Shown here: piece by piece, positions 8,503 through 53,603 of the stretch
How the letters are laid out: every line of letters begins with the position of its first letter
How positions within the stretch are numbered: position 1 is the first letter of the stretch
Assembly (NCBI GenBank): GCA_964581565.1
Contig: CAZOOZ010000004.1
Span: forward strand, 82,115 to 146,114
Direction of reading: 5' to 3'
DNA from: an uncultured Eubacteriaceae bacterium
GTDB taxonomy: Bacteria; Bacillota; Clostridia; Eubacteriales; UBA1433
DNA length: 64,000 bases
The notes under the pieces: generated by a model
Database searches by the model: none
Seen by the model: the letters and a program-made list of their open reading frames with translations, nothing else
Told to the model about the DNA's origin: nothing
Position numbers and translations under genes: made by a program

Positions 8503-9282
8503 TTAATCATCGTTATGATCACATATGATTTTATATACGACTCCCCGATTTAAATTGAGGACTTCAGCTATTTTTCTTATTGATAAATTTGTATTATTTT
8601 TCAAAAATAGAACTATTTGTATTCTTTTTTCGATGTATTCTTTTTTGTGTAGATTACTTAGTAATATATCCGTAATGTTAAAATATTCTTTTATCAAAGC
8701 CTTAGCATCTATCAGTTCATTAGTGTTATTATTTAAATCCAAGATACAATCATTGCAATCTTCATTGATGAACTCTAAAAAATAAGTATATGTTCGAGGG
8801 TTTTGATTCATACAAGAGCATTGCTGTATATAATCATAATATTCATAATATATATCTTTTGCATTAACAGATAAAATTCTTTTATAATTATTCTGATTCG
8901 ATGTCGCATGATTTATGAAATATCTTATTACTTGTAAAAATCTATCTTCATCATAAATAGCCTCACTTAAATATCGGCTATAAAACACATGACCGTATCT
9001 GGAATTTTTTCTATTATAGTAGGCCGCATAGCTAATATTTACCCTCTTCATGATTTCTGCTATATTTAATAAATTTTCTTTTATTAAAAAATGAGCGTGA
9101 TCATCTAAAATACAATATGCACATACATCGTAGTTTTTATTTAAAGATTTATTGCGAATTATTTCAATAACCTTCTTTTTATCTTCATATTCAAGGAAAA
9201 TATTTTCTGAACTATTTCCTCTAACTATTGTATGATATATTTTCGAATTGTGATAATTTCTAGCTTGTCTTGCCATATGCAC
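8503..9282 (-). CDS. Y1/HUH (IS200/RAYT-like) transposase-fold protein with C-terminal helix-turn-helix, occupying the ctsR position
   Basis: 259 aa. N-terminal IYHTIVRGN, HUH motif in ILDDHAHFLI, then YGHVFYSRY and IRYFINH (candidate catalytic Tyr region). C-terminal LSIRKIAEVLNLNRGVVYKI is HTH-like. The gene ends 13 nt before the mcsA start. Confidence 0.65.
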   Translation of the reverse strand: MHMARQARNYHNSKIYHTIVRGNSSENIFLEYEDKKKVIEIIRNKSLNKNYDVCAYCILDDHAHFLIKENLLNIAEIMKRVNISYAAYYNRKNSRYGHVFYSRYLSEAIYDEDRFLQVIRYFINHATSNQNNYKRILSVNAKDIYYEYYDYIQQCSCMNQNPRTYTYFLEFINEDCNDCILDLNNNTNELIDAKALIKEYFNITDILLSNLHKKEYIEKRIQIVLFLKNNTNLSIRKIAEVLNLNRGVVYKIICDHNDD

Positions 9283-14241: not shown

Positions 14242-14880
14242 CTATTTAAATCTGTTCCTGTTTTTCATTGTTTTTATTCTAAGTAAAAGTTGTTTATAGA
14301 AATCTTTACCGAAAAATAAAAAGAAATTAAGCAATGAACCAATGATAGCAATTCGAATAGAGCCGCTTCCTATTATAATTTCATATAAATATAAGACGGC
14401 ATTGGCATAAGCCAAATATTTAATTTTAACGGGTAAAATAAAAAATAATAATATTTCCATATTTGGGTAGAGCATTGCAAAAGCAAAGAATAAAGAAAGA
14501 TTCAAAAATGTCCCCGTAACAGGAATTTGAGATATTAAAGATGCTATAACAGTTAATACAACGCCCAAAAAATAATAAATATTAAATTTAAAACTTCCCC
14601 ATGTGCGTTCAAGTGAAGTGCCGATAAAATAATAAAAATATAAAGCTATAATAGTAAAGAAGATACCTGATGCCGGAGGAACAAAAATAAAAGTTATTAC
14701 TCGCCAAATCTGGCCTTTGAAAACTAGGGCGGGATCTAAAATAAAGTATGAAAGTATTTCAGTTCTATTTAAAACATATGCAACTACATAAATAATCGCA
14801 TTTAGTATAGTGATGTGGAGCATCAGATTCTTTATAGCATATTTACCAAATTTTTTATTTAATTTATTTAAAAATTTCAT
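14242..14880 (-). CDS. polytopic membrane protein, rhomboid-like fold without an obvious catalytic Ser/His
   Basis: 212 aa with about 6 TM segments. GQIWRVITFIFVP resembles the rhomboid WR-x-T-x-F motif, but I see no GxSG. Confidence 0.45.
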   Translation of the reverse strand: MKFLNKLNKKFGKYAIKNLMLHITILNAIIYVVAYVLNRTEILSYFILDPALVFKGQIWRVITFIFVPPASGIFFTIIALYFYYFIGTSLERTWGSFKFNIYYFLGVVLTVIASLISQIPVTGTFLNLSLFFAFAMLYPNMEILLFFILPVKIKYLAYANAVLYLYEIIIGSGSIRIAIIGSLLNFFLFFGKDFYKQLLLRIKTMKNRNRFK

Positions 14881-15029
14881 TTAATTTCCTCGTAATTTAA
14901 GATATGTTGCCTTTATATTCTATATTGTTTAGATAAAAATGTAAATTAGTAAATTAAATAGATAAAAATTTATTTGCGAAATATGATGATAACGATATAG
15001 TTTATTATAAGCAAATTTCAAATTTATGC

Positions 15030-15474
15030 AAACAGATAAGCAGACCTGCAATCTCATATAAGAAGAGGTCTGCTTAACTTTTGAAGATGTACCGCAATGG
15101 TGTACTTCCTCCTTTTTCTCTCCTATCCCACTCATCTATAAAACTCATATTCTATAATTAAGAAATAAAGTATTCATGATCAATGGGAAGGTACATATTT
15201 GAAAATTACAGTTTGGCAACCATTGCAAGCCGCTTATAATCTTCTCAACCAAATACGTTATAGCTGTTTTCATTTATATCTTTTCTTTATATGATCCATC
15301 CTATGCTTTTGATAAACGATATACAGTAAAATTACTGTTTTTTCGTTTTCTCTAAACCCTTAGGCTCAACATACTTTGAAACATATATTGAATCAATACT
15401 GAAAATGCATATCCGTACAGGTGCGTAACCTTATCGGAGGTTCCAGATAATTCGGTAAACCTTTTCATCTGGTG
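15030..15474 (-). ncRNA. candidate ~445-nt structured non-coding RNA of unassigned family (copy 1)
   Basis: Bounded by its own promoter and hairpin terminator. No SD-preceded ORF. Several nested and long-range complementary segments (listed in findings). Confidence 0.55.
15037..15076 (-). terminator. hairpin terminator at the 3' end of the repeat-encoded RNA (copy 1)
   Basis: 10-bp stem TAAGCAGACC/GGTCTGCTTA with a 20-nt loop. It is followed on the minus strand by AUCUGUUU (a weak U tract). Confidence 0.5.
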
Positions 15475-15480
15475 GGTTTC

Positions 15481-15509
15481 ATTGTATACGATATCACTTT
15501 CTTTGTCAA
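15481..15509 (-). promoter_or_regulatory. near-consensus sigma-A promoter of the repeat-encoded RNA (copy 1)
   Basis: On the minus strand: TTGACA (15509-15504), 17-nt spacer, TACAAT (15486-15481), preceded by an A-rich UP-like tract (AAAAATTTCCAAAAAAGTA). Confidence 0.7.
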
Positions 15510-15532
15510 TACTTTTTTGGAAATTTTTTACT

Positions 15533-16021
15533 CTAATTTTCTGCGTCTGTATGAATTACCAAAACCGGACACGGGGCTTCTGCCAGTACTCTTTGTGCAA
15601 CCGAACCAATAAAGAAACGTTTTATTTTAGAAAAGCCTCTGTTTCCTATAACAATCAAATCAAATTTTTCATTTTGGGCTGTTTCTAAAATTTTAATATA
15701 AGGCTCGCCAAAATATATTTGTGTTTCAAACTCAATATTTGTAAAATCAAATTCGGAAAGAATAGATTCTAGCAAATCTGATGCATTATGCACCATTATT
15801 TGCTTCAATGCTTCATCATCTATTTTTGTGTCCCTGCCGATAATGATTGAACCATCAACTTGGCGCCAGAGCTGTTCGTTTATTTTAAACATTCTTGCAT
15901 AGTCATAATGAACGACGGTAATCAGTTTAAGATACGATTTTTTGGCTTTTGATATTTCTATCGCTTTTTTTACAGCATTTTTAGAGGCGGTAGATCCGTC
16001 TACAGGAACTAATATTTTCAT
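15533..16021 (-). CDS. universal stress protein (UspA family, ATP-binding type)
   Basis: 162 aa starting MKILVPVDGS, with the C-terminal G-x2-G-x9-G(S/T) motif (GNRGFSKIKRFFIGSVAQ). Confidence 0.85.
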   Translation of the reverse strand: MKILVPVDGSTASKNAVKKAIEISKAKKSYLKLITVVHYDYARMFKINEQLWRQVDGSIIIGRDTKIDDEALKQIMVHNASDLLESILSEFDFTNIEFETQIYFGEPYIKILETAQNEKFDLIVIGNRGFSKIKRFFIGSVAQRVLAEAPCPVLVIHTDAEN

Positions 16022-16092
16022 GATAATCTCCTTTAAATTTATTGAAAATATTTTTTTGAAAAAATGATGTGTAAATATTATCTATATTTTTA

Positions 16093-16980
16093 TTATGATT
16101 GAAGTTCCGTTTCCTTTTTTACTATATTTATTAAATAATGCAAAAATTCATCTTTAATATCTTTTCGTTTTAAGGCTGTTTCAACGGTTGCTTCTAAAAA
16201 GCCTTGTTTGCTTCCTAAATCATAACGTCGACCTTCGAATATATAAGCGAAAACTTTTTCAACTTCAGCGAGTTTGTTTAATGCATCTGTTAGCTGTATT
16301 TCTCCTCCTTTACCCGGCGATGTTTCATCAAGTATTTTAAATATTGTTGGTGTAATGATATATCTTCCCAAGATTGCTATGTCGGATGGAGCATCACTTT
16401 CTGAAGGTTTTTCTACAAGACCGTTCACTTGATAAATGCTATCAGTTATTTTTTTCCCGTCAACTATACCATATTTATTAACTTGAGAAAGCTCAACTTG
16501 CTGAACACCCAAAATTGTTGATTGATAGTTGTCAAATACGTCAATCATTTGTTTTAAACATGGCGTGTGATCGTTATCTACAACATCATCGCCAAGCAAA
16601 ACTGCAAAAGGTTCATTACCTACAAATGTTCTCGCGCAATAAATTGCATGTCCGAGTCCCTTAGGTTCTTTTTGTCTTATATAATGGATTTCGGCAAGTT
16701 CGGAGATGTCTTTTACAATTTTTAAGAGATCGAAATTGTTTTTTCGTTCAAGTTCTTGTTCAAATTCAATTGATCGATCAAAATGATCTTCGATCGCTCG
16801 TTTGTTTTTTCCTGTAATAATGAGAATTTCATCGATTCCGGAATTTATTGCTTCTTCAATAATATATTGAATAGTGGGTTTGTCTACAATCGGAAGCATT
16901 TCTTTTGGCATTGCTTTTGTTGCCGGCAAAAAACGCGTTCCCAATCCTGCTGCCGGAATGATCGCTTTTCGTACACGCAT
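16093..16980 (-). CDS. galU: UTP--glucose-1-phosphate uridylyltransferase
   Basis: KAIIPAAGLGTRFLPATKAMPKEMLPIVDKP N-terminus and LGDD motif; 295 aa. Confidence 0.93.
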   Translation of the reverse strand: MRVRKAIIPAAGLGTRFLPATKAMPKEMLPIVDKPTIQYIIEEAINSGIDEILIITGKNKRAIEDHFDRSIEFEQELERKNNFDLLKIVKDISELAEIHYIRQKEPKGLGHAIYCARTFVGNEPFAVLLGDDVVDNDHTPCLKQMIDVFDNYQSTILGVQQVELSQVNKYGIVDGKKITDSIYQVNGLVEKPSESDAPSDIAILGRYIITPTIFKILDETSPGKGGEIQLTDALNKLAEVEKVFAYIFEGRRYDLGSKQGFLEATVETALKRKDIKDEFLHYLINIVKKETELQS

Positions 16981-17361
16981 ATTAATTTATACCTGCCTTT
17001 ATCATTGCATAATTAATTATTATAATATTGCTTTTTGTTTTAAAGAATAACATATTGAATAGAAAATTTCAACCAACAAGGGTTTTTACGTGTTCATAAA
17101 AAATAAAAATTTAGATAGTTTTCTTATGATTGACAGAGTAATAAAATTTGTATTTTTCTATGCAATATGTTAGCATTGTAAATAATATTTCAGTTTTGTT
17201 AATATAAATTTACATAAAATTTACTTGTGCCAGTATAAAATTAAAGACGTGATATTTAAGTTTAGCAAAATATTATTTCAGATAAAATATTCTGCTTTGT
17301 AGATATTATTAAAAAACATATAGACAATAGACATAAAGGCTAAATGATAGGAGGAATGATA

Positions 17362-19551
17362 ATGAATAAAATAATTATTATTTCAAACAGATTACCCATC
17401 ACAGTGCAAAAAAATATTGAGAATAATATTGAATATATAGAAAGTATAGGTGGTTTATCTACCGGACTAAAAAATATTCATCACCAAGGCAACAGTATTT
17501 GGATCGGTTGGCCGGGTATATCAACAGATAAATTAACAGAAAATGAAAGAAATGATATAAATAGAACATTAATTAAAGATTATAAATGCCTTCCTGTTTT
17601 TTTGTCTGAAGATGAAGTAAATCTTTATTATCATGGTTTTTGTAATAAAACAATATGGCCATTGTTTCATTATTTTCAAGAAAAAACTGAATATGATTTT
17701 GAAACTTGGGAAACATATAAATCGGTAAATTTGAAATTTTTTAAAACAGTTGAATCGATAATCGAAAAAAACGATATTGTTTGGGTGCATGACTATCAGT
17801 TAATGTTGCTTCCTGAAATGATAAAAACAAAATATTACAGCACACAAGTTGGTTTCTTTTTACATATCCCCTTCCCTTCAGCTGAAATATTTAGATTGTT
17901 AATTTGGCGCAATGAAATTTTAACTGGAATTCTAGGTGCTGACTTAATCGGCTTTCATACTTATGACTATGTCCGGCATTTTTTGAGCAGTGCGAGAAGG
18001 TTGCTTGGATTGGAAGATAATTTAAATAAAATAGCATATGAAAATAGATATGTGCAAGTCAATGCTTTTCCTATGGGCATTGAATATAAACGTTTTTTTC
18101 AATACTGTGAAGTACATGATATTGTTGATAATGATGAGGATGATTTTGTAAATATAGGAAATATAAAAACAATACTCTCAGTCGACAGGCTCGACTATAC
18201 GAAAGGTATTCCGCAACGCATAAAATCATTTGGCAGATTTTTAAAAAATTATCCTGAATATCAAGGGAAGGTAATCTTAATTTTGATAGTTGCTCCATCA
18301 AGAGTGGAAGTTGACTCTTATAATCAATTATTACGACAAATCAAAGAGCAAATCAGTGAAATAAACGGAAGATACGGAACCATGAAATGGGTACCGATAT
18401 TATTTTTCTTTCGTTCTTTTAGTCAAGAAAAATTAATAGAATTTTACAGGCAGACAGATGTTTTACTTGTGACTCCGCTAAGAGACGGAATGAATTTAGT
18501 GGCAAAGGAATATATAGCTTCGAGAAATGACTATAAAGGAATGGTGGTAATCAGTGAAACTGCAGGTGCCGCTAGTGAATTGGGAGAAGCGATTATAGTC
18601 AATGCCAATGATTTTAATTCAACAGCCGAAGGAATCAAAATTGCGCTTGAAATGCCGGAAGAAGAGATTATCACAAGAAATAAAAGGATGCATGAGCGGT
18701 TAAAACGTTATAATGTTTACTTTTGGACTTCGGAATTTTTAAATTCTCTCAATCAAACTGTGATAGAATCAATCAATATAAGTACGCAAAAAAATGCAGA
18801 AGAAAATATTGAGATTATTAAAACTGAATATAAAAAAGCAAATAAAAGAGTTTTGTTTTTAGATTATGATGGCACTTTGGTAGGGCTTACATCAATACCT
18901 GAAAAGGCAAAACCTGATGAACAAATTAAAAATTTATTGACAAAATTAGCATCTGATCCACAAAATACTGTAGTAATCATTTCGGGCAGAGATCGCTATG
19001 TATTAACAAAATGGTTGGGGGATCTAAATTTATCTCTAATTGCATCTCATGGATTATGGCTGCGAACAGAAAAACAAGATGAATGGAGAATAATGATTGA
19101 TTTAGATAATGATTGGAAAAGCTCGGTGCGTACTATTTTAGAATTATATACAGACCGTATCCCTGGTTCATTTATTGAGGAAAAAGAATTTTCTTTAGCG
19201 TGGCATTACAGGCAGTGTGATCCGGATATTGTAGCATCAAAACTTAGTGAAATCAAAGATGCACTTCTATCTATGATTCAATCCAGCACTTTAGAGCTGA
19301 TAAATGGAAATAAAGTATTAGAGATAAACGATAGCAGATTTAACAAAGGATATGCGGCTTTGAATTTATTGCAAAATCAAGAGTGTGATTTTATATTTGC
19401 TGTTGGTGATGATGCCACAGATGAAGATTTATTTTCATTATTGCCAAAAAATGCGTACACTATTAAAATAGGAGCTGGTAGCACAAATGCGGGCTATAGA
19501 ATGAAGTCATGGCGCTCTCTAAGAAAAATGTTGGAGGAATTGACTGATTAA
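17362..19551 (+). CDS. otsA: fused trehalose-6-phosphate synthase (GT20) / trehalose-6-phosphate phosphatase
   Basis: The N-terminal ~470 aa carry GT20 motifs (ISNRLP, WVHDYQLMLLP, GFFLHIPFPS). The C-terminal ~240 aa carry HAD TPP motifs (LFLDYDGTL, GDDATDEDLF). Start set at ATG 17362, 7 nt after AGGAGG; the track start is 17344. Confidence 0.9.
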   Translation: MNKIIIISNRLPITVQKNIENNIEYIESIGGLSTGLKNIHHQGNSIWIGWPGISTDKLTENERNDINRTLIKDYKCLPVFLSEDEVNLYYHGFCNKTIWPLFHYFQEKTEYDFETWETYKSVNLKFFKTVESIIEKNDIVWVHDYQLMLLPEMIKTKYYSTQVGFFLHIPFPSAEIFRLLIWRNEILTGILGADLIGFHTYDYVRHFLSSARRLLGLEDNLNKIAYENRYVQVNAFPMGIEYKRFFQYCEVHDIVDNDEDDFVNIGNIKTILSVDRLDYTKGIPQRIKSFGRFLKNYPEYQGKVILILIVAPSRVEVDSYNQLLRQIKEQISEINGRYGTMKWVPILFFFRSFSQEKLIEFYRQTDVLLVTPLRDGMNLVAKEYIASRNDYKGMVVISETAGAASELGEAIIVNANDFNSTAEGIKIALEMPEEEIITRNKRMHERLKRYNVYFWTSEFLNSLNQTVIESINISTQKNAEENIEIIKTEYKKANKRVLFLDYDGTLVGLTSIPEKAKPDEQIKNLLTKLASDPQNTVVIISGRDRYVLTKWLGDLNLSLIASHGLWLRTEKQDEWRIMIDLDNDWKSSVRTILELYTDRIPGSFIEEKEFSLAWHYRQCDPDIVASKLSEIKDALLSMIQSSTLELINGNKVLEINDSRFNKGYAALNLLQNQECDFIFAVGDDATDEDLFSLLPKNAYTIKIGAGSTNAGYRMKSWRSLRKMLEELTD

Positions 19552-19597
19552 ACTATATCATTACCTGTATATCAGGCAGAAAGGAGATTTAGTTTGT

Positions 19598-21877
19598 ATG
19601 AAAGATGACATCTATGAAGTTACCGATCTAAATTTAAGTACATATCATCTTAAGTTAAATGAAGCATTGTTTCATAATGCAAACGGGTATATTGGAATCA
19701 GATATGATTTTGAAGAAGGTTACGGAGATAAAATGAAATATATCCCGAGCCAGTATATCAATGGATTTTATGATTTTACAGAGATGAAACAGGCAGAAAA
19801 TTTATATGGCTTAATAAGAGAAAAACATGTCATGGTAAATATAGCAAATACTCAATTTATAAAATTATATGTTGATGATGAAGAATTTAGCATGTTTACC
19901 GGTACAATATTGCAAAGTAAATTATCCTTAAATATGGACAAAGGAATAACAATAAGAGATGTGATTTGGCGTTCTCCTAAAGGCAAAGAAGTGCATATTG
20001 CCATAAAACGCATGGCATCTTTTCATCAGTTATCGCTTTTTACGATTGACTATGAAATAGAATTATTAAATTTTTCAGGGAAAGTAGTTTTTGACTCCTT
20101 GCATGATGGCAATGTAATGAATTATGCACAACCATTTGATCCTCGTATTGCGGATGACTTTGAAAGTTATATTTACCCCGTAAATTGTGAAATTAAAAAT
20201 GAAGGATCATGTATCACTTCTGTGACATCAAAATCTAATTTAAATGTATGCAGCTATGTAAAAAATATATTTTTTAAAGAGCATCAAAATGAATTTAAAA
20301 TTAATAATAATCAAACTTTAAATCGAATAAAAGCATATGCCGATAAAGGTGAAAAGATTAGATTAATTAAGTATGCCGTATTTTCAGATTCTATTCGTTA
20401 TAAAAATTGTAAAGAACAATGTTATAAGGAGATGAAAAATGCACTTGCTTTGCCTATAGAAGACTTATATAAAAAGCAGGAAATGTATATTGCAAATTTT
20501 TGGGAAAATTGTTTAATCGAAATTGATGGCGATGATGAGTTGGATATGGCGTTGAATTTTAATTTATATCAACTTTTGCAATCTGTGAGCAAAGATCAAT
20601 TCGGTAATATTTCTCCCAAAGGACTCAGCGGAGATGGATACGACGGACATTATTTTTGGGATTCTGAAATGTATGTACAACCATTTTTTACAATTACAAA
20701 TCCGAAAATGACAAAAAAGCTGATTGAATATCGTTATGCTATATTAGATAAAGCAAGAGAAAACGCAAGGTTGCTCGGTCATAAAAATGGAGCGCTTTAT
20801 CCATGGAGAACAATAATGGGGAAAGAATGTTCCGGATATTTTCCGGCAGGATCTGCGCAGTATCATATAAACGGAGACATAGCATATTCAATTATTGCCT
20901 ATTATCTAGCGACGAAAGATGAAGAGTTATTATTAAAACAAGGAATGGAAATTATTTTTGAAACAGCAAGGATATGGCTTGATACAGGAAATTTTCATGA
21001 TGAAAAATTTCATATTAATACGGTGACAGGCCCGGACGAGTATACTTGCCTGGTGAACAATAATTATTACACAAATGTCTTGGCGCAATATCATTTAAAT
21101 TGGGCTGTGAAATTTTATTATCTCTTTAAAGATAATGAAAGCTTTGCGGAATTAACAAAAAAAATAAATCTATACGAAGATGAAATTAAAACATATAAGA
21201 TTGCTGCAAATGCAATGTATTTACCTTATGACGAAACATTAAAAATCAATCCACAGGATGATTCGTTTCTGCAAAAGGAAAAATGGGATATTGCCAGTAT
21301 TCCAAAAGAATTCTTTCCCTTGCTTCTTCACTATCATCCCCTTCATATTTACAGATATCAGATATGTAAGCAAGCCGATACGGTTATGGCACATTTCATC
21401 ATTGAAGATGCACAATCTGAAGAAACAATGAAAAATTCGCTTTTATATTACGAAAAAATAACAACACATGATTCTTCTTTATCAAAGCCGATTTTTAGCA
21501 TTATGGCTGCGAGACTTGGCATGGAAAAGAAAGCATATAAGTATTTCGGAGATTCGGCAAAATTAGATTTAATGGACTTAAATAAAAATACTGAAGACGG
21601 AGTGCATATAGCTAATATGGCTGGAAGTTATTTGATGATCGTCTATGGCTTTGCTGGATTTAGATTAAAAGAAAGCGGAATATCATTTTGGCCAATGATA
21701 CCAGATGAATGGAATTCATATTCTTTTAGAATAGTATATGAAAACAGTAGAATTAAGGTAAGTATTCATAAAGAAGAATGCTTATTCTATCTCGAAAAAG
21801 GAAAAAGGAAAAAGATAAAAGTTTATGGCAAAGAATATCTATTAAAAGATCATTTAATTGTTGAAAAATCAAATTAA
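19598..21877 (+). CDS. GH65 glycoside phosphorylase (trehalose/kojibiose/maltose phosphorylase family)
   Basis: 759 aa with GLSGDGYDGHYFWDSEMY, the GH65 catalytic-domain signature region. The trehalose substrate is inferred from context only. Confidence 0.85.
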   Translation: MKDDIYEVTDLNLSTYHLKLNEALFHNANGYIGIRYDFEEGYGDKMKYIPSQYINGFYDFTEMKQAENLYGLIREKHVMVNIANTQFIKLYVDDEEFSMFTGTILQSKLSLNMDKGITIRDVIWRSPKGKEVHIAIKRMASFHQLSLFTIDYEIELLNFSGKVVFDSLHDGNVMNYAQPFDPRIADDFESYIYPVNCEIKNEGSCITSVTSKSNLNVCSYVKNIFFKEHQNEFKINNNQTLNRIKAYADKGEKIRLIKYAVFSDSIRYKNCKEQCYKEMKNALALPIEDLYKKQEMYIANFWENCLIEIDGDDELDMALNFNLYQLLQSVSKDQFGNISPKGLSGDGYDGHYFWDSEMYVQPFFTITNPKMTKKLIEYRYAILDKARENARLLGHKNGALYPWRTIMGKECSGYFPAGSAQYHINGDIAYSIIAYYLATKDEELLLKQGMEIIFETARIWLDTGNFHDEKFHINTVTGPDEYTCLVNNNYYTNVLAQYHLNWAVKFYYLFKDNESFAELTKKINLYEDEIKTYKIAANAMYLPYDETLKINPQDDSFLQKEKWDIASIPKEFFPLLLHYHPLHIYRYQICKQADTVMAHFIIEDAQSEETMKNSLLYYEKITTHDSSLSKPIFSIMAARLGMEKKAYKYFGDSAKLDLMDLNKNTEDGVHIANMAGSYLMIVYGFAGFRLKESGISFWPMIPDEWNSYSFRIVYENSRIKVSIHKEECLFYLEKGKRKKIKVYGKEYLLKDHLIVEKSN

Positions 21878-21908
21878 CGTTAATAATGATAAAACAATGA
21901 GGGAAATT

Positions 21909-22544
21909 ATGAAGTATAAAGCAATTGTTTTTGATCTTGACGGAGTATTATGCAATACTGATAAATATCATTATTTAGCTTGGAAACAGCTCACTGATGA
22001 ATTAGGCATCAATTTTGATGAACAGATAAATAATCGACTCCGGGGAATCGGTCGTATGGATAGTTTAAATATTATTTTAGAATCTTATGAAGAGGCATTT
22101 TCTAACGAAGAAAAAGTGGCTTTAACGGAAAAAAAGAATACATATTATAAGAAATATCTTGAAGATTTATCCGAAAAGGATCTTTTACCGGAAATAAAAG
22201 ATACACTTGATAAACTTAGAGCAAAAAAATTAAAATTGGCTATAGGTTCTTCAAGCAAAAATACAAAGCTCATATTAAAACAATTGGGATTAGGAAATTA
22301 TTTCGATGCTATATCTGACGGAACCAATATTCATAAATCAAAACCCGATCCTGAGGTTTATTTAAAAGCGAGTATATTTTTAAATATCCAACCTCAAGAT
22401 TGCCTGGTTGTTGAAGATGCTCTCTCTGGTATTCAAGCCGCAACAGCGGCTGGGATGGATTGTGCGGCTATCGGCGATGGAGTCAGATACAATCTTGCGC
22501 GTTATAGTTTAAATACATTTTCAGAACTATTAAATATAGTTTAG
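21909..22544 (+). CDS. pgmB: beta-phosphoglucomutase
   Basis: MKYKAIVFDLDGVL HAD motif I, GSSSKN, and EDALSGIQAA. Follows a GH65 gene. Start moved to ATG 21909, after GAGGGA. Confidence 0.88.
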   Translation: MKYKAIVFDLDGVLCNTDKYHYLAWKQLTDELGINFDEQINNRLRGIGRMDSLNIILESYEEAFSNEEKVALTEKKNTYYKKYLEDLSEKDLLPEIKDTLDKLRAKKLKLAIGSSSKNTKLILKQLGLGNYFDAISDGTNIHKSKPDPEVYLKASIFLNIQPQDCLVVEDALSGIQAATAAGMDCAAIGDGVRYNLARYSLNTFSELLNIV

Positions 22545-22570
22545 TTTTCATATATATTCGTGGAGGAAAT

Positions 22571-23584
22571 GTGATGATTATAGCTGCTGATATTGGTGGG
22601 ACAAAGTCTGCCCTCGCCTATTTATATAATAAAAATGATAAAATATATATATTAAGACAAAAAAAATATTTAAATAAATATTTTAATTCATTTGAAGAAG
22701 TATTGGAAACTTTCTTCAGCGAACATCCAGAAATAAAACAGATAAAGTATGCATGCTTTGCCGCCGCGGGGCCAATTATGGATGATAAGTGCTATATGGT
22801 CAATTTAGGCTGGACAGTCGATAAGAAAAAAATTATAGAAAAATTTCCAAGTATTCAAAACATAGTATTGTGTAATGATCTTGAAGCAGTTGGTTTTGGA
22901 TTAAAAATCTTATCAGATAAAGAAATTATTAATCTTACTCCGCAACTGCATAATAATCATTTTGAAGATGAAAAGAGATATGCGATTATAGCGCCGGGGA
23001 CTGGTCTCGGAGAAGCGCTTATAATAAATGATAAAGTATATCCTTCAGAAGGGTCTCACTGTAATTTCGGACCTAATTCTAAAAAGCAAATGCAGTTGTG
23101 GGAATTTCTTTTTAAAAAATTCGGGCATGTCAGTTATGAAAGAATTTTATCCGGCCCTGGTTTGCGTGAGGTGTTTCTTTTCTTAATAAGCGAAAAGAAA
23201 ATCGATAATGCAGAATTTGAAATAATTCCGGAAGAAATTACGAAAAGAGCACTTGCAGGCACCTGTGAAATATGTAAAGAAACAATCGATTTATTTGCGG
23301 AAGTATTAGGATCCGAAGCAGGAAATGCAGCTTTAAGAATACTTGCTGTGGATGGGATATATTTAGGTGGTGGAATTTTACCTAAAATTTTACCTTTAAT
23401 ACAAGAACAAAAATTTTTAGATGCATTTTATAAAAAAGGAAGATTTACCGATTTAATAAAAAAAATTCCTGTATTTATTATTATGAACAGTAACGCCGCA
23501 CTTTATGGAGCTGCTTTAGTTGCTTTTAATAAACTATATCCAATGATACAGTTTGATGCAATTGAAGATGATGTAGTGAATTAA
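22571..23584 (+). CDS. glk: glucokinase (Glk family)
   Basis: IAADIGGTKSALA N-terminus and GGGI near the C-terminus; 337 aa. A GGAGG SD lies upstream; the start is GTG 22571 or ATG 22574. Confidence 0.8.
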   Translation: MMIIAADIGGTKSALAYLYNKNDKIYILRQKKYLNKYFNSFEEVLETFFSEHPEIKQIKYACFAAAGPIMDDKCYMVNLGWTVDKKKIIEKFPSIQNIVLCNDLEAVGFGLKILSDKEIINLTPQLHNNHFEDEKRYAIIAPGTGLGEALIINDKVYPSEGSHCNFGPNSKKQMQLWEFLFKKFGHVSYERILSGPGLREVFLFLISEKKIDNAEFEIIPEEITKRALAGTCEICKETIDLFAEVLGSEAGNAALRILAVDGIYLGGGILPKILPLIQEQKFLDAFYKKGRFTDLIKKIPVFIIMNSNAALYGAALVAFNKLYPMIQFDAIEDDVVN

Positions 23585-23603
23585 TTAAAATGCAATTATT
23601 TAT

Positions 23604-24048
23604 AAACAGATAAGCAGACCTGCAATCTCATATAAGAAGAGGTCTGCTTAACTTTTGAAGATGTACCGCAATGGTGTACTTCCTCCTTTTTCTCTCCTAT
23701 CCCACTCATCTATAAAACTCATATTCTATAATTAAGAAATAAAGTATTCATGATCAATGGGAAGGTACATATTTGAAAATTACAGTTTGGCAACCATTGC
23801 AAGCCGCTTATAATCTTCTCAACCAAATACGTTATAGCTGTTTTCATTTATATCTTTTCTTTATATGATCCATCCTATGCTTTTGATAAACGATATACAG
23901 TAAAATTACTGTTTTTTCGTTTTCTCTAAACCCTTAGGCTCAACATACTTTGAAACATATATTGAATCAATACTGAAAATGCATATCCGTACAGGTGCGT
24001 AACCTTATCGGAGGTTCCAGATAATTCGGTAAACCTTTTCATCTGGTG
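23604..24048 (-). ncRNA. candidate ~445-nt structured non-coding RNA of unassigned family (copy 2)
   Basis: Same promoter, body and terminator as copy 1. Here it is convergent with glk. Confidence 0.55.
23611..23650. terminator. hairpin shared by the copy-2 RNA (minus strand) and probably glk (plus strand)
   Basis: 10-bp stem TAAGCAGACC/GGTCTGCTTA located 27 nt after the glk stop. It is followed by AACTTTT on the plus strand and ATCTGTTT on the minus strand. Confidence 0.5.
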
Positions 24049-24054
24049 GGTTTC

Positions 24055-24083
24055 ATTGTATACGATATCACTTTCTTTGTCAA
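24055..24083 (-). promoter_or_regulatory. near-consensus sigma-A promoter of the repeat-encoded RNA (copy 2)
   Basis: TTGACA (24083-24078), 17 nt, TACAAT (24060-24055) on the minus strand. Confidence 0.7.
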
Positions 24084-24240
24084 TACTTTTTTGGAAATTT
24101 TTAATATTTATTAAATTATCATATAGTATTCACATAAATACCATCTGCATATCAATTTCAGTAAGTATTATCTTCTTATTAAATCGGCATTTGCATGTTT
24201 TCAATTTATGAACTAAATAATATTTCAAAGGCAAAATGAG

Positions 24241-25170
24241 ATGAACAATCATTCGGAGCCAATTATTATTTTATATAATTTAAATTTACAAAACATATTA
24301 TCTATTAAAAAGATAAAAGAATCTGGATTGCATAATATCAGCGTAAAATATGATGAAAAAAATGACGTCATTGATATTATTGACGACAACAGAAAATCAC
24401 AAAAATATGCTTGCATATCTTGCGACATAAAATATAGCAGAATAATTAATGAAATAATCGCCGGAATAGATTATGCGAATAAAAACTATTCTAATTGTTC
24501 TGGCTATATAGTCATTGATGCTCAATATGGAGGATTGAGTATCAATAAAATACAAAAAAATGTAAATAGATTAAAATGCAATTTTAAAAATCATAAATTA
24601 TTGTTTTTAAATTTTGTTTCAAATTTTATATTTTTTTCATTTTGTCATGTTAAATTTGGATATTTTAATAGGTATTTGCATTTAATAGCAATACCAAGAA
24701 ACGTATCAAAAGCATCTTTGTCGATGTTGGATAAGTCATATAGAACCTTCATTTATAATATCTTTTTTAAATTATATTATAATATATATAAATATAGCCT
24801 GTCTTCCTTCATGTGTGCAATTGTGGATTTATCATTATTTTATTTTTTAAATATGTTGTTTGGTTCTACAGCAAACGGAATTTTAGCTTCAACCGTACTT
24901 GCAAGATTAACTTCAGGAAGCACCAATTTTGCTCTAAATAAATATTGGGTATTTAAAAGTAAAAATTATATTAATAAAGAATTATATAAATATATTGGAT
25001 TATTTTGTTTTCAAATGATTTCAAGTTGGATATTTGTAACATTACTCGGCAATTTCTCGATACCACTTTTATTTACGAAAATATTTGTAGACATGATGCT
25101 ATTTATTATGAGTTACTTCATACAGAAAAAATATATTTTTAACGACAAAAAGGAAATAGAGCATTTATGA
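24241..25170 (+). CDS. membrane protein with a C-terminal GtrA-like domain and an uncharacterised N-terminal domain
   Basis: The C-terminal 130 aa have 4 TM segments and LTSGSTNFALNKYWVFKS, the GtrA signature region. The N-terminal ~170 aa have no motif I recognise. Confidence 0.6.
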   Translation: MNNHSEPIIILYNLNLQNILSIKKIKESGLHNISVKYDEKNDVIDIIDDNRKSQKYACISCDIKYSRIINEIIAGIDYANKNYSNCSGYIVIDAQYGGLSINKIQKNVNRLKCNFKNHKLLFLNFVSNFIFFSFCHVKFGYFNRYLHLIAIPRNVSKASLSMLDKSYRTFIYNIFFKLYYNIYKYSLSSFMCAIVDLSLFYFLNMLFGSTANGILASTVLARLTSGSTNFALNKYWVFKSKNYINKELYKYIGLFCFQMISSWIFVTLLGNFSIPLLFTKIFVDMMLFIMSYFIQKKYIFNDKKEIEHL

Positions 25171-33262: not shown

Positions 33263-33339
33263 TGGAGCTACTGAGCGGACTCGAACCGCTGACCTGCTGA
33301 TTACGAATCAGCTGCTCTACCAACTGAGCCACAGTAGCT
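33263..33339 (-). tRNA. tRNA-Thr (anticodon CGU), CCA encoded
   Basis: The reverse complement folds by hand into a cloverleaf. Acceptor AGCTACT/AGTAGCT, D arm GGCT..GAGC, anticodon stem GCTGA/TCAGC with loop TTCGTAA, T arm AGCGG-TTCGAGT-CCGCT, 3' CCA. Confidence 0.9.
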
Positions 33340-53251: not shown

Positions 53252-53603
53252 TGGTGGAGGCGGCGGGAGTTGAACCCGCGTCCAAAAGCGTATTCACAAA
53301 ATTTTCTCCGAGTGCATTCGCTTTTCTTTTTTCATTTTCATTTAGACGGGCGACCGACTGAATGAAAACTATCCTCTTAAATTTTCAAAAGATTTCGAGG
53401 AAAAATCATTTGAGTTTCCTGCATTATTTGATGCCTTAAAATATCACGCAGGAATGATAAATCAAGACATTGCAGCAATTACGCTGCAAAAGCTAATTTT
53501 TCGTTTTTAGCGTTTAAATTTAATTGCCATCATTATAACGGTATTTGGCATTCCCGACTCGCTTATTTTGCTTCAACACCCCTGTCGAAACCATTGCGCC
53601 CCC
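53252..53603 (-). ncRNA. ssrA: tmRNA (SsrA)
   Basis: 5' GGGGGCGCAATGGTTTCGACAGGGG and 3' GGACGCGGGTTCAACTCCCGCCGCCTCCACCA. The acceptor stem has a G3-U pair. The tag frame GCT AAA AAC GAA AAA TTA GCT TTT GCA GCG TAA encodes AKNEKLAFAA and is followed by the GCAGC/GCTGC hairpin. Confidence 0.95.

Follow-up and report, generated by a model that had tools for sequence, protein, structure and literature searches.

The 64,000-nucleotide window analysed here, a stretch of contig CAZOOZ010000004.1 from an uncultured Eubacteriaceae bacterium, contains two identical copies of a 499-bp intergenic unit, and the most probable explanation for this unit is that it constitutes a stand-alone gene for a structured non-coding RNA (ncRNA) of ~445 nt, which was anciently duplicated and has been homogenised by gene conversion. 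The host lineage is an uncultured, gut-type member of the Eubacteriaceae, and the RNA belongs to a family with no counterpart in Rfam, while in kind the arrangement is an established one, that of sibling ncRNA genes. According to the proposed mechanism, the duplication of the RNA gene would predate the split of at least three species, and homologous recombination would since then have repeatedly overwritten one copy with the other (gene conversion), in tracts that end where the 499 bp of shared sequence end. A strong promoter of its own would drive each copy, and the RNA would act in trans and not on a neighbouring gene. As each copy has its own promoter, the duplication would double the template for the RNA. 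In this scheme, transcription and the ends of the RNA are predicted, while recombination as the homogenising mechanism and the action of the RNA in trans are what we infer from the comparisons set out below.

The two copies, with positions given as those of the window, are the following:

15030..15528, minus strand: copy 1 of the 499-bp unit, between the usp stop codon (15533) and the Der1/rhomboid-like gene (start 14880).
23604..24102, minus strand: copy 2 of the 499-bp unit, consisting of an A/T tract, a promoter, the ncRNA and a 3' hairpin; the nhmmer profile match spans its full length.

An original prediction, made from the letters of the window, had described these segments as 499/499 identical at a constant offset of 8574 and with sharp edges, and direct comparison confirmed this description. 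The 499 positions are the maximal identical run, and beyond it the flanks of the two copies differ at once, both on the left (...AAATTTATGC versus ...CAATTATTTAT) and on the right (TACTCTAA versus AATATTTA). No weaker copy accompanies these two in the 64-kb window, as judged by blastn at sensitive settings, by nhmmer and by a homolog-derived profile, and the G+C content of the unit is 33%, compared with 32% for the window. With regard to the copy count that had been proposed as a check, the genome has at least two copies, those of the 64-kb window, and a 23-mer scan recovered three in the metagenome-assembled genome (MAG) of a sister species (species B, described below). The edges of the block lie upstream of the promoter and past the 3' hairpin, so that what was duplicated is one gene and nothing more. 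The earlier claim that the unit itself was duplicated therefore stands, for a whole, self-contained gene that begins with the A/T tract preceding the -35 hexamer and stops just beyond the 3' hairpin.

The age of the duplication can be judged from the relatives of the window organism. This organism represents species A, which is present in many metagenome samples. Species B, which includes the Eubacteriaceae MAG CAZHMK01 as well as contigs of the Joint Genome Institute (JGI), has an OtsAB protein (a fused trehalose-6-phosphate synthase/phosphatase, according to Pfam/NCBIfam) 90% identical to that of the window and DNA ~82-83% identical to it. The unit occupies the usp/Der1 locus of species B as well as its glk/GtrA locus, both orthologous to those of the window, with distinct flanks. 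In species C (OtsAB 87% identical), the glk-side copy is present on contig L010, and the contigs of the Der1 side (L026) start with the last 34 nt of the unit, showing the same species-C-specific variants. The comparison of sister loci that had been advised along with the original prediction thus found both loci occupied in species B and C. Pairwise identities, computed over the promoter and the RNA, are as follows:

Species A versus species B: 79.5% identity.
Species A versus species C: 73.9% identity.
The two copies within species A: 499/499.
The two copies within the species B MAG: 486/486.
The two copies within L018, a species B contig: 482/486, that is, 4 differences.

Copies that share a genome are consequently 99.2-100% identical, while identity falls to 74-80% from one species to another, and the two loci are both filled in A, B and C. 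Since the same loci are occupied and the copies resemble each other within a genome more than they do between species, the duplication is older than the species, with gene conversion probably keeping the copies alike. Paralogs that match each other rather than their positional orthologs are the defining pattern of concerted evolution (PMC6053082), a process known for tufA/tufB and for the rRNA operons (PMC5485169, PMC8022953). The original prediction had left a choice between a very recent duplication and ongoing gene conversion; the first of these is effectively refuted, while the second is upheld by the sister-species loci and by the identities listed above. The homology edges in A and B fall within a few nt of each other, in keeping with conversion tracts that do not reach beyond the block first duplicated.

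Species B holds a third paralog with 60% identity at an unrelated locus (L014:6631-7118 and L020:3480-3967), where it sits between a divergent alpha/beta-hydrolase gene and a convergent open reading frame (ORF) of 124 aa. In this paralog the 3' hairpin persists, as do the conserved blocks and both promoter hexamers. Neither an empty site nor a single-copy ancestor was found in the look-up via OtsAB and Der1-like homologs, because the more distant relatives reached in this way, at ≤66-74% amino-acid identity, have other neighbours and hold no homolog of the unit within ±10 kb.

The anatomy of the unit is that of a gene, and its parts are given here for copy 2:

24084..24102, minus strand: A/T-rich tract AAAAATTTCCAAAAAAGTA, directly upstream of the -35 hexamer; its distal end is the repeat edge.
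24055..24083, minus strand: promoter, TTGACA-17-TACAAT, an 11/12 match.
23604..24050, minus strand: predicted ncRNA of ~445 nt, with a putative start ~5-9 nt past the -10 hexamer.
23611..23650 (copy 1: 15037-15076), both strands: 3' hairpin, terminator-like and stable on either strand.

The promoter of copy 1, TTGACA-17-TACAAT at 15509-15481 on the minus strand, is near consensus, and its two hexamers recur in all three species and in the third paralog, where they read TTGACA-17-TATTAT. The A/T tract AAAAATTTCCAAAAAAGTA resembles an UP element. The predicted minus-strand transcript folds at -126.4 kcal/mol, with a z-score of -6.44 against shuffled sequences, compared with -2.95 for the plus strand. 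The 3' hairpin (minus strand, -20.7 kcal/mol; plus strand, -23 kcal/mol) is conserved and is followed on the RNA by UCUGUUU, which falls short of a strict U-tract rule; the unit ends 7 nt after it. On the plus strand, this same hairpin begins 27 nt past the glk stop codon and is followed by UUAACUUUUG, so the copy-2 hairpin could plausibly also end glk transcripts. The original prediction had suggested this second role for it, to which the stable plus-strand fold and the UUAACUUUUG stretch lend support, and against which stands the lack of a strict terminator call.

The RNAalifold consensus, obtained from five sequences that represent four lineages, comprises 114 pairs arranged in five domains:

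24017..24046, minus strand: domain 1, the 5' hairpin, CCAGAUGA...UUAUCUGG with a conserved AUGAAAAGGUUUAC apex, which folds alone in 4 lineages.
Domain 2: a long, branched, rod-like arm of ~180 nt.
23775..23820, minus strand: domain 3, the near-invariant block A hairpin (helices 9 and 10), with the apical GCAAUGGU at 23793-23800.
Domain 4: a ~75-nt hairpin closed by CCUUCC/GGAUAGG.
Domain 5: the 3' hairpin, preceded by a hairpin that contains GGAGG.
23657..23686, minus strand: the near-invariant GGAGG hairpin of domain 5, whose 5' arm includes a Shine-Dalgarno-like GGAGG; loop, ACCAUUGC at 23668-23675.

Two-sided changes occur at 17 pairs, compared with 7.2±2.0 in shuffled alignments (0/500 of which reach 17) and with 5-7 in slid controls, and 90.6% of the cells pair, versus 42-48% when the partners are slid. 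For every domain, separate folding gave one common shape across the four lineages, and helix 1 of domain 1 varies by exchanges among G-C, A-U and G-U. These data, which come from only four independent lineages, point with moderate confidence to a fold that is conserved through compensatory changes. A 4-bp long-range helix, CUCC/GGAG, is also possible and would close domains 2-4. In addition, GCAAUGGU at the apex of block A is perfectly complementary over 8 nt to ACCAUUGC in the loop of the GGAGG hairpin (15219-15226 and 15094-15101 in copy 1; 23793-23800 and 23668-23675 in copy 2). Species C and the third paralog keep most of this pairing, with a change from U-A to U-G, one U·U mismatch and one added G-C. 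The two segments may form a loop-loop contact, but this is only a lead, since about one chance match of 8 nt is expected in an RNA of this length.

On the plus strand, the reverse complement of the block A hairpin contains a sigma-70 match, TTGGCA-16-TATAAT (11/12), at 15213-15240 and 23787-23814. In copy 2 it faces the GtrA-family gene, and antisense or divergent transcription is possible. The match is probably coincidental, given that it decays in the third paralog.

A scan of the whole window with Rfam 15 gave no match in the unit at gathering scores, and with E values of up to 10 only chance hairpin matches were obtained for the window copy, the species C copy and the third paralog. The families without a match to the unit include 6S, RNase P, SRP, tmRNA, OLE, ROOL, GOLLD, raiA, HEARO and the riboswitches. 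An enlarged 6S RNA was considered on account of the rod-like domain 2 and was rejected, as no 6S model matches. A CsrA-type sponge was likewise set aside, because 8 GGA motifs (counted by hand) versus ~5 expected from a rough base-composition estimate do not amount to an enrichment. Elsewhere, the only Rfam matches of the window at gathering scores are a tmRNA gene (53252-53603, minus strand, 195.8 bits) and one tRNA (33266-33338, minus strand). A weak match to CRISPR-DR43 in the upstream region of the Der1-like gene (14911-14939, plus strand, 24.8 bits, E 0.15) lies below the gathering score and is taken as a chance match because it is single-copy and AT-rich.

Outside the window, a 23-base exact pattern searched in 185,579 species genomes recovered a single MAG with 3 copies, that of species B, and a 19-base exact pattern searched in JGI metagenomes recovered contigs of the sister species plus one chance match in a coding region (L017). 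An exact scan of viral contigs with two conserved 20-mers gave 0 matches, and the only alignment that blastn in distant mode returned from the plasmid and phage collections was a chance one of 48 nt. These pattern scans need exact matches, and the metagenome scan missed L004 and L005, both of which have the pattern. As the metagenome collection scanned is a subset, absence elsewhere is weak evidence.

With regard to function, the conserved promoter, the gene dosage, the size of the RNA and the combination of invariant loops with covarying stems suggest, with low confidence, a trans-acting, multi-hairpin RNA with a regulatory or protein-binding role, whose core would be the near-invariant 3' part together with the block A hairpin. 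A comparison with 60 translation-start regions by RNAduplex returned only long, loop-ridden duplexes in the variable A/U-rich parts and was judged uninformative.

The genes around the two copies bear on how the present arrangement came about. A gap of 4 nt separates copy 1 from the end of the usp gene (15533-16021, minus strand), and the Der1/rhomboid-like gene (14242-14880, minus strand) lies 149 nt past the other end of this copy. The plus-strand glk gene, for a glucokinase, has its stop codon at 23584, 19 nt before copy 2, and beyond this copy a plus-strand GtrA-family gene begins at 24241. These neighbours and distances are as originally described. What did not hold is the description of the second copy as standing in an unrelated context, because the two copies are direct repeats that bracket one coherent cluster of 8.1 kb:

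15529..23603, genes on both strands: bracketed segment of 8075 bp, with usp and galU on the minus strand and an otsAB fusion, a GH65 phosphorylase gene, a beta-phosphoglucomutase gene (pgmB) and glk on the plus strand (Pfam and NCBIfam matches).

The bracketed genes form a coherent trehalose/glucose module, and the arrangement of two direct repeats 8.6 kb apart around it is shared by two sister species. Inside the cluster, the divergent galU and otsAB genes are separated by an unusually long intergenic stretch of 363 nt (16981-17343).

This arrangement has raised the possibility of a Campbell-type single crossover, in which a circle carrying the trehalose cluster and one RNA gene joined a resident RNA gene. 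This origin is compatible with the explanation preferred here, and the repeats would in that case still let the 8.1-kb cluster loop out or amplify; on balance, we regard it as unlikely, though worth serious consideration. It would account for whole-gene direct repeats around a single, functionally coherent cluster, and contig L004 (JGI 3300033169) joins usp, the unit and glk in the way expected for the junction of an excised circle or of a tandem duplication. In fact, L004:1-3502 corresponds to window positions 16225-15529, the unit and window positions 23603-21252, and it has a private, frameshifting deletion of 46 nt near the 3' end of glk (in the region of window positions 23489-23534) and an A-to-G change at 23531. 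Nevertheless, L004 is a single short-read contig of 3.5 kb that may be a mis-join through the repeat, the arrangement is stable in three species, and no empty site of the type Der1-RNA-GtrA was found, the neighbours of the distant relatives being different. Neither an integrase nor a recombinase occurs among the six bracketed genes, which are metabolic or usp, or in the immediate flanks (the Der1-like and GtrA-like genes). A more far-reaching version, which we consider doubtful, is that the unit represents a previously undescribed class of five-domain RNA whose duplicate genes serve as recombination handles, so that the trehalose cluster would have been captured via the RNA gene and could be excised or amplified, with L004 as a junction. 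If true, it would tie an RNA gene family to the copy-number plasticity of a stress operon.

An ancient RNA gene pair homogenised by gene conversion also has to be weighed against other readings of the unit. One of them is that it serves as punctuation at the level of DNA, a bidirectional terminator with promoters for the neighbouring genes, among them the plus-strand TTGGCA-16-TATAAT of block A directed toward the GtrA-family gene, and that it has no RNA product. The hairpin is indeed stable on both strands and well placed past glk, and block A, read as its reverse complement, matches a promoter at 11/12 positions, but ~350 nt from promoter to hairpin keep a minus-strand-specific fold by compensatory or G-U-compatible changes. 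Moreover, while the plus-strand promoter decays in the third paralog, the hairpin is held there by an exchange of C-G to U-A, and in copy 1 this promoter would only run antisense into usp, all of which makes such a cassette improbable.

Two insertions of a non-autonomous mobile element, either similar to a miniature inverted-repeat transposable element (MITE) or representing an end of an insertion sequence (IS) or integrative element, are slightly less probable still. Sharp edges and identical copies are what such an element would show, and a RAYT-like Y1 transposase gene is located 6 kb off (8503-9282). On the other hand, terminal inverted repeats are absent, as no repeat of this kind links one end of the unit to the other, and the flanks (TTTATGC-unit-TACTCTA and TTATTTAT-unit-AATATTT) reveal no target-site duplication; inspection of inverted repeats and flanks hence bore out the earlier statement that the unit has neither of these features nor a transposase inside. 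Furthermore, copies are few (2 in the 64 kb, and 3 recovered from the species B genome with a 23-mer), they occupy orthologous positions across species, the phage and plasmid collections and the viral contigs gave no match, and relatives without the unit have the Y1 gene in a syntenic position. This gene encodes a Y1 (RAYT/IS200-like) transposase homolog of 259 aa on the minus strand, adjoins mcsA/mcsB, and occupies the same syntenic place in species B, in species C and in a distant relative without the unit (L009, L026 and L024). From this shared position, it looks resident, possibly domesticated, and unrelated to the repeat.

A cis-acting leader, a riboswitch or a gene for a small protein is about equally improbable. 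A strong Shine-Dalgarno-like AAGGAGG precedes a TTG frame of 7 codons (MRYIFKS) that is kept in all lineages. However, the spacing to the TTG start is poor (10-11 nt), a hairpin comes directly after, and the whole 100-nt region is near-invariant, synonymous positions included, which indicates a constraint on nucleotides. Internal ORFs range from 24 to 68 aa, with stops in every frame in one lineage or another, and those of 38 and 42 aa are shifted in species B by a 1-nt insertion and a 2-nt deletion; for these frameshifts and stops in relatives, a small-protein gene was rejected. The only frame open through the conserved 3' part, which has a stop in species C, found no protein match in a database of 5.8 billion proteins, where spurious ORF calls at homologous RNA loci had been sought. 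As for a leader, no riboswitch of Rfam matches, and the downstream neighbour differs for each copy: a Der1-like gene on the same strand, glk (convergent) and, for the third paralog, the 124-aa ORF (convergent), so that two of the three are convergent. The conclusion drawn originally, that the unit is not the leader or riboswitch of one particular gene, is reinforced by these three contexts with their three different downstream neighbours.

A duplication too young to have gathered substitutions would explain zero differences across 499 bp of AT-rich, non-coding DNA, but it is very unlikely, since species B and C share both loci with an RNA 20-26% different from that of the window and with (nearly) identical copies of their own, and it is implausible that three species each gained a recent duplication independently at these two sites. 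An assembly duplication artefact, named originally as a possible refutation and suggested by the metagenomic source and by the fact that perfect repeats are a classic product of mis-assembly, is the least credible of all: each copy lies between unique sequences on either side, many independent samples and assemblers yielded contigs that stop at the repeat edges, short-read contigs from at least 8 other samples end there or inside the repeat, and the same two loci are found in two sister species, one of them with 4 differences between its copies.

Several points weigh against the reading of the unit as an anciently duplicated and converted RNA gene. Its promoter, start site and 3' end are predictions, and the 3' hairpin has no clean U-tract, so a strict terminator scan makes no call. 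The fold rests on four effectively independent sequences, and the CUCC/GGAG helix and the 3' hairpins are invariant, so that no covariation bears on them. The family was found in one genus-level clade only, by exact-pattern scans that are insensitive, and it could be a lineage-specific, young transcript of modest importance. Finally, the exact 100% identity could partly stem from assembly. De Bruijn assemblers can use one repeat node for both copies, and this reuse could mask a few true differences, of the order seen in L018 (4/486 positions).

With these reservations, the unit represents a new large structured-RNA candidate from an uncultured Eubacteriaceae lineage, and a small-scale, clean case in which an RNA gene, together with its promoter, evolves in concert. 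Bacterial structured RNAs longer than ~400 nt without a known role are few, and those that have been studied tended to show unusual biochemistry. Given the narrow clade and the lack of a functional pointer, the importance of this one should be regarded as modest until its expression and partners are known. In practical terms, the 499-bp repeat breaks short-read assemblies at both ends of the trehalose cluster and can yield chimeric joins.

Among known systems, MITEs resemble the unit in that their copies are short, identical, intergenic and sharp-edged, but the unit differs from them in having neither terminal inverted repeats nor target-site duplications, a very low copy number, positions fixed across species and a gene-like interior. 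OLE, ROOL, GOLLD, raiA and HEARO are RNAs of several hundred nt with multi-domain folds, found in Firmicutes and metagenomes, whose function was not evident from sequence. The unit RNA shares with them the size class and a conserved multi-domain fold, while it matches none of them in sequence or structure (Rfam), is restricted to one genus-level clade and has no consistent protein-gene partner.

Long, multi-hairpin regulatory RNAs of Firmicutes, such as RNAIII of Staphylococcus aureus (514 nt) and VR-RNA of Clostridium perfringens (~390 nt), offer a further parallel, although by analogy only: all are independent transcripts of 400-500 nt (predicted in the present case) with many hairpins, and their 3' part with the terminator hairpin is the most conserved. 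In contrast to RNAIII and VR-RNA, with which it has no homology, the unit encodes no peptide, has no quorum-sensing or two-component system nearby, and lacks conserved C-rich loops of the sort that might pair with ribosome-binding sites.

The sibling small RNAs (sRNAs) of bacteria, like Qrr1-5, PrrF1/2, the CsrB paralogs and 6S-1/6S-2 (PMC4211561; for the csrB duplication, PMC6262261), provide the precedent for two or more paralogous genes, dispersed in a genome, for one ncRNA. Each sibling gene has its own promoter and terminator, and the additional copies offer extra dosage or separate regulatory inputs. The copies of the unit are identical including their promoters and hence give no sign of separate regulation. 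Unlike the sibling sRNAs, the unit RNA is much longer (~445 nt) and has no assigned partner or target, and its genes bracket a gene cluster as direct repeats.

As to their mode of evolution, the unit paralogs behave like tufA/tufB and the rRNA operons, being closer to each other within a genome than to their orthologs in other species (PMC6053082), and their homogenisation likewise stops where the homology ends. Unlike those genes, the converted unit is short (499 bp) and is a lineage-restricted RNA gene instead of a universal translation gene. Since its repeats are direct and only 8.6 kb apart, the same recombination that would keep the two copies alike could also delete the cluster that lies between them.

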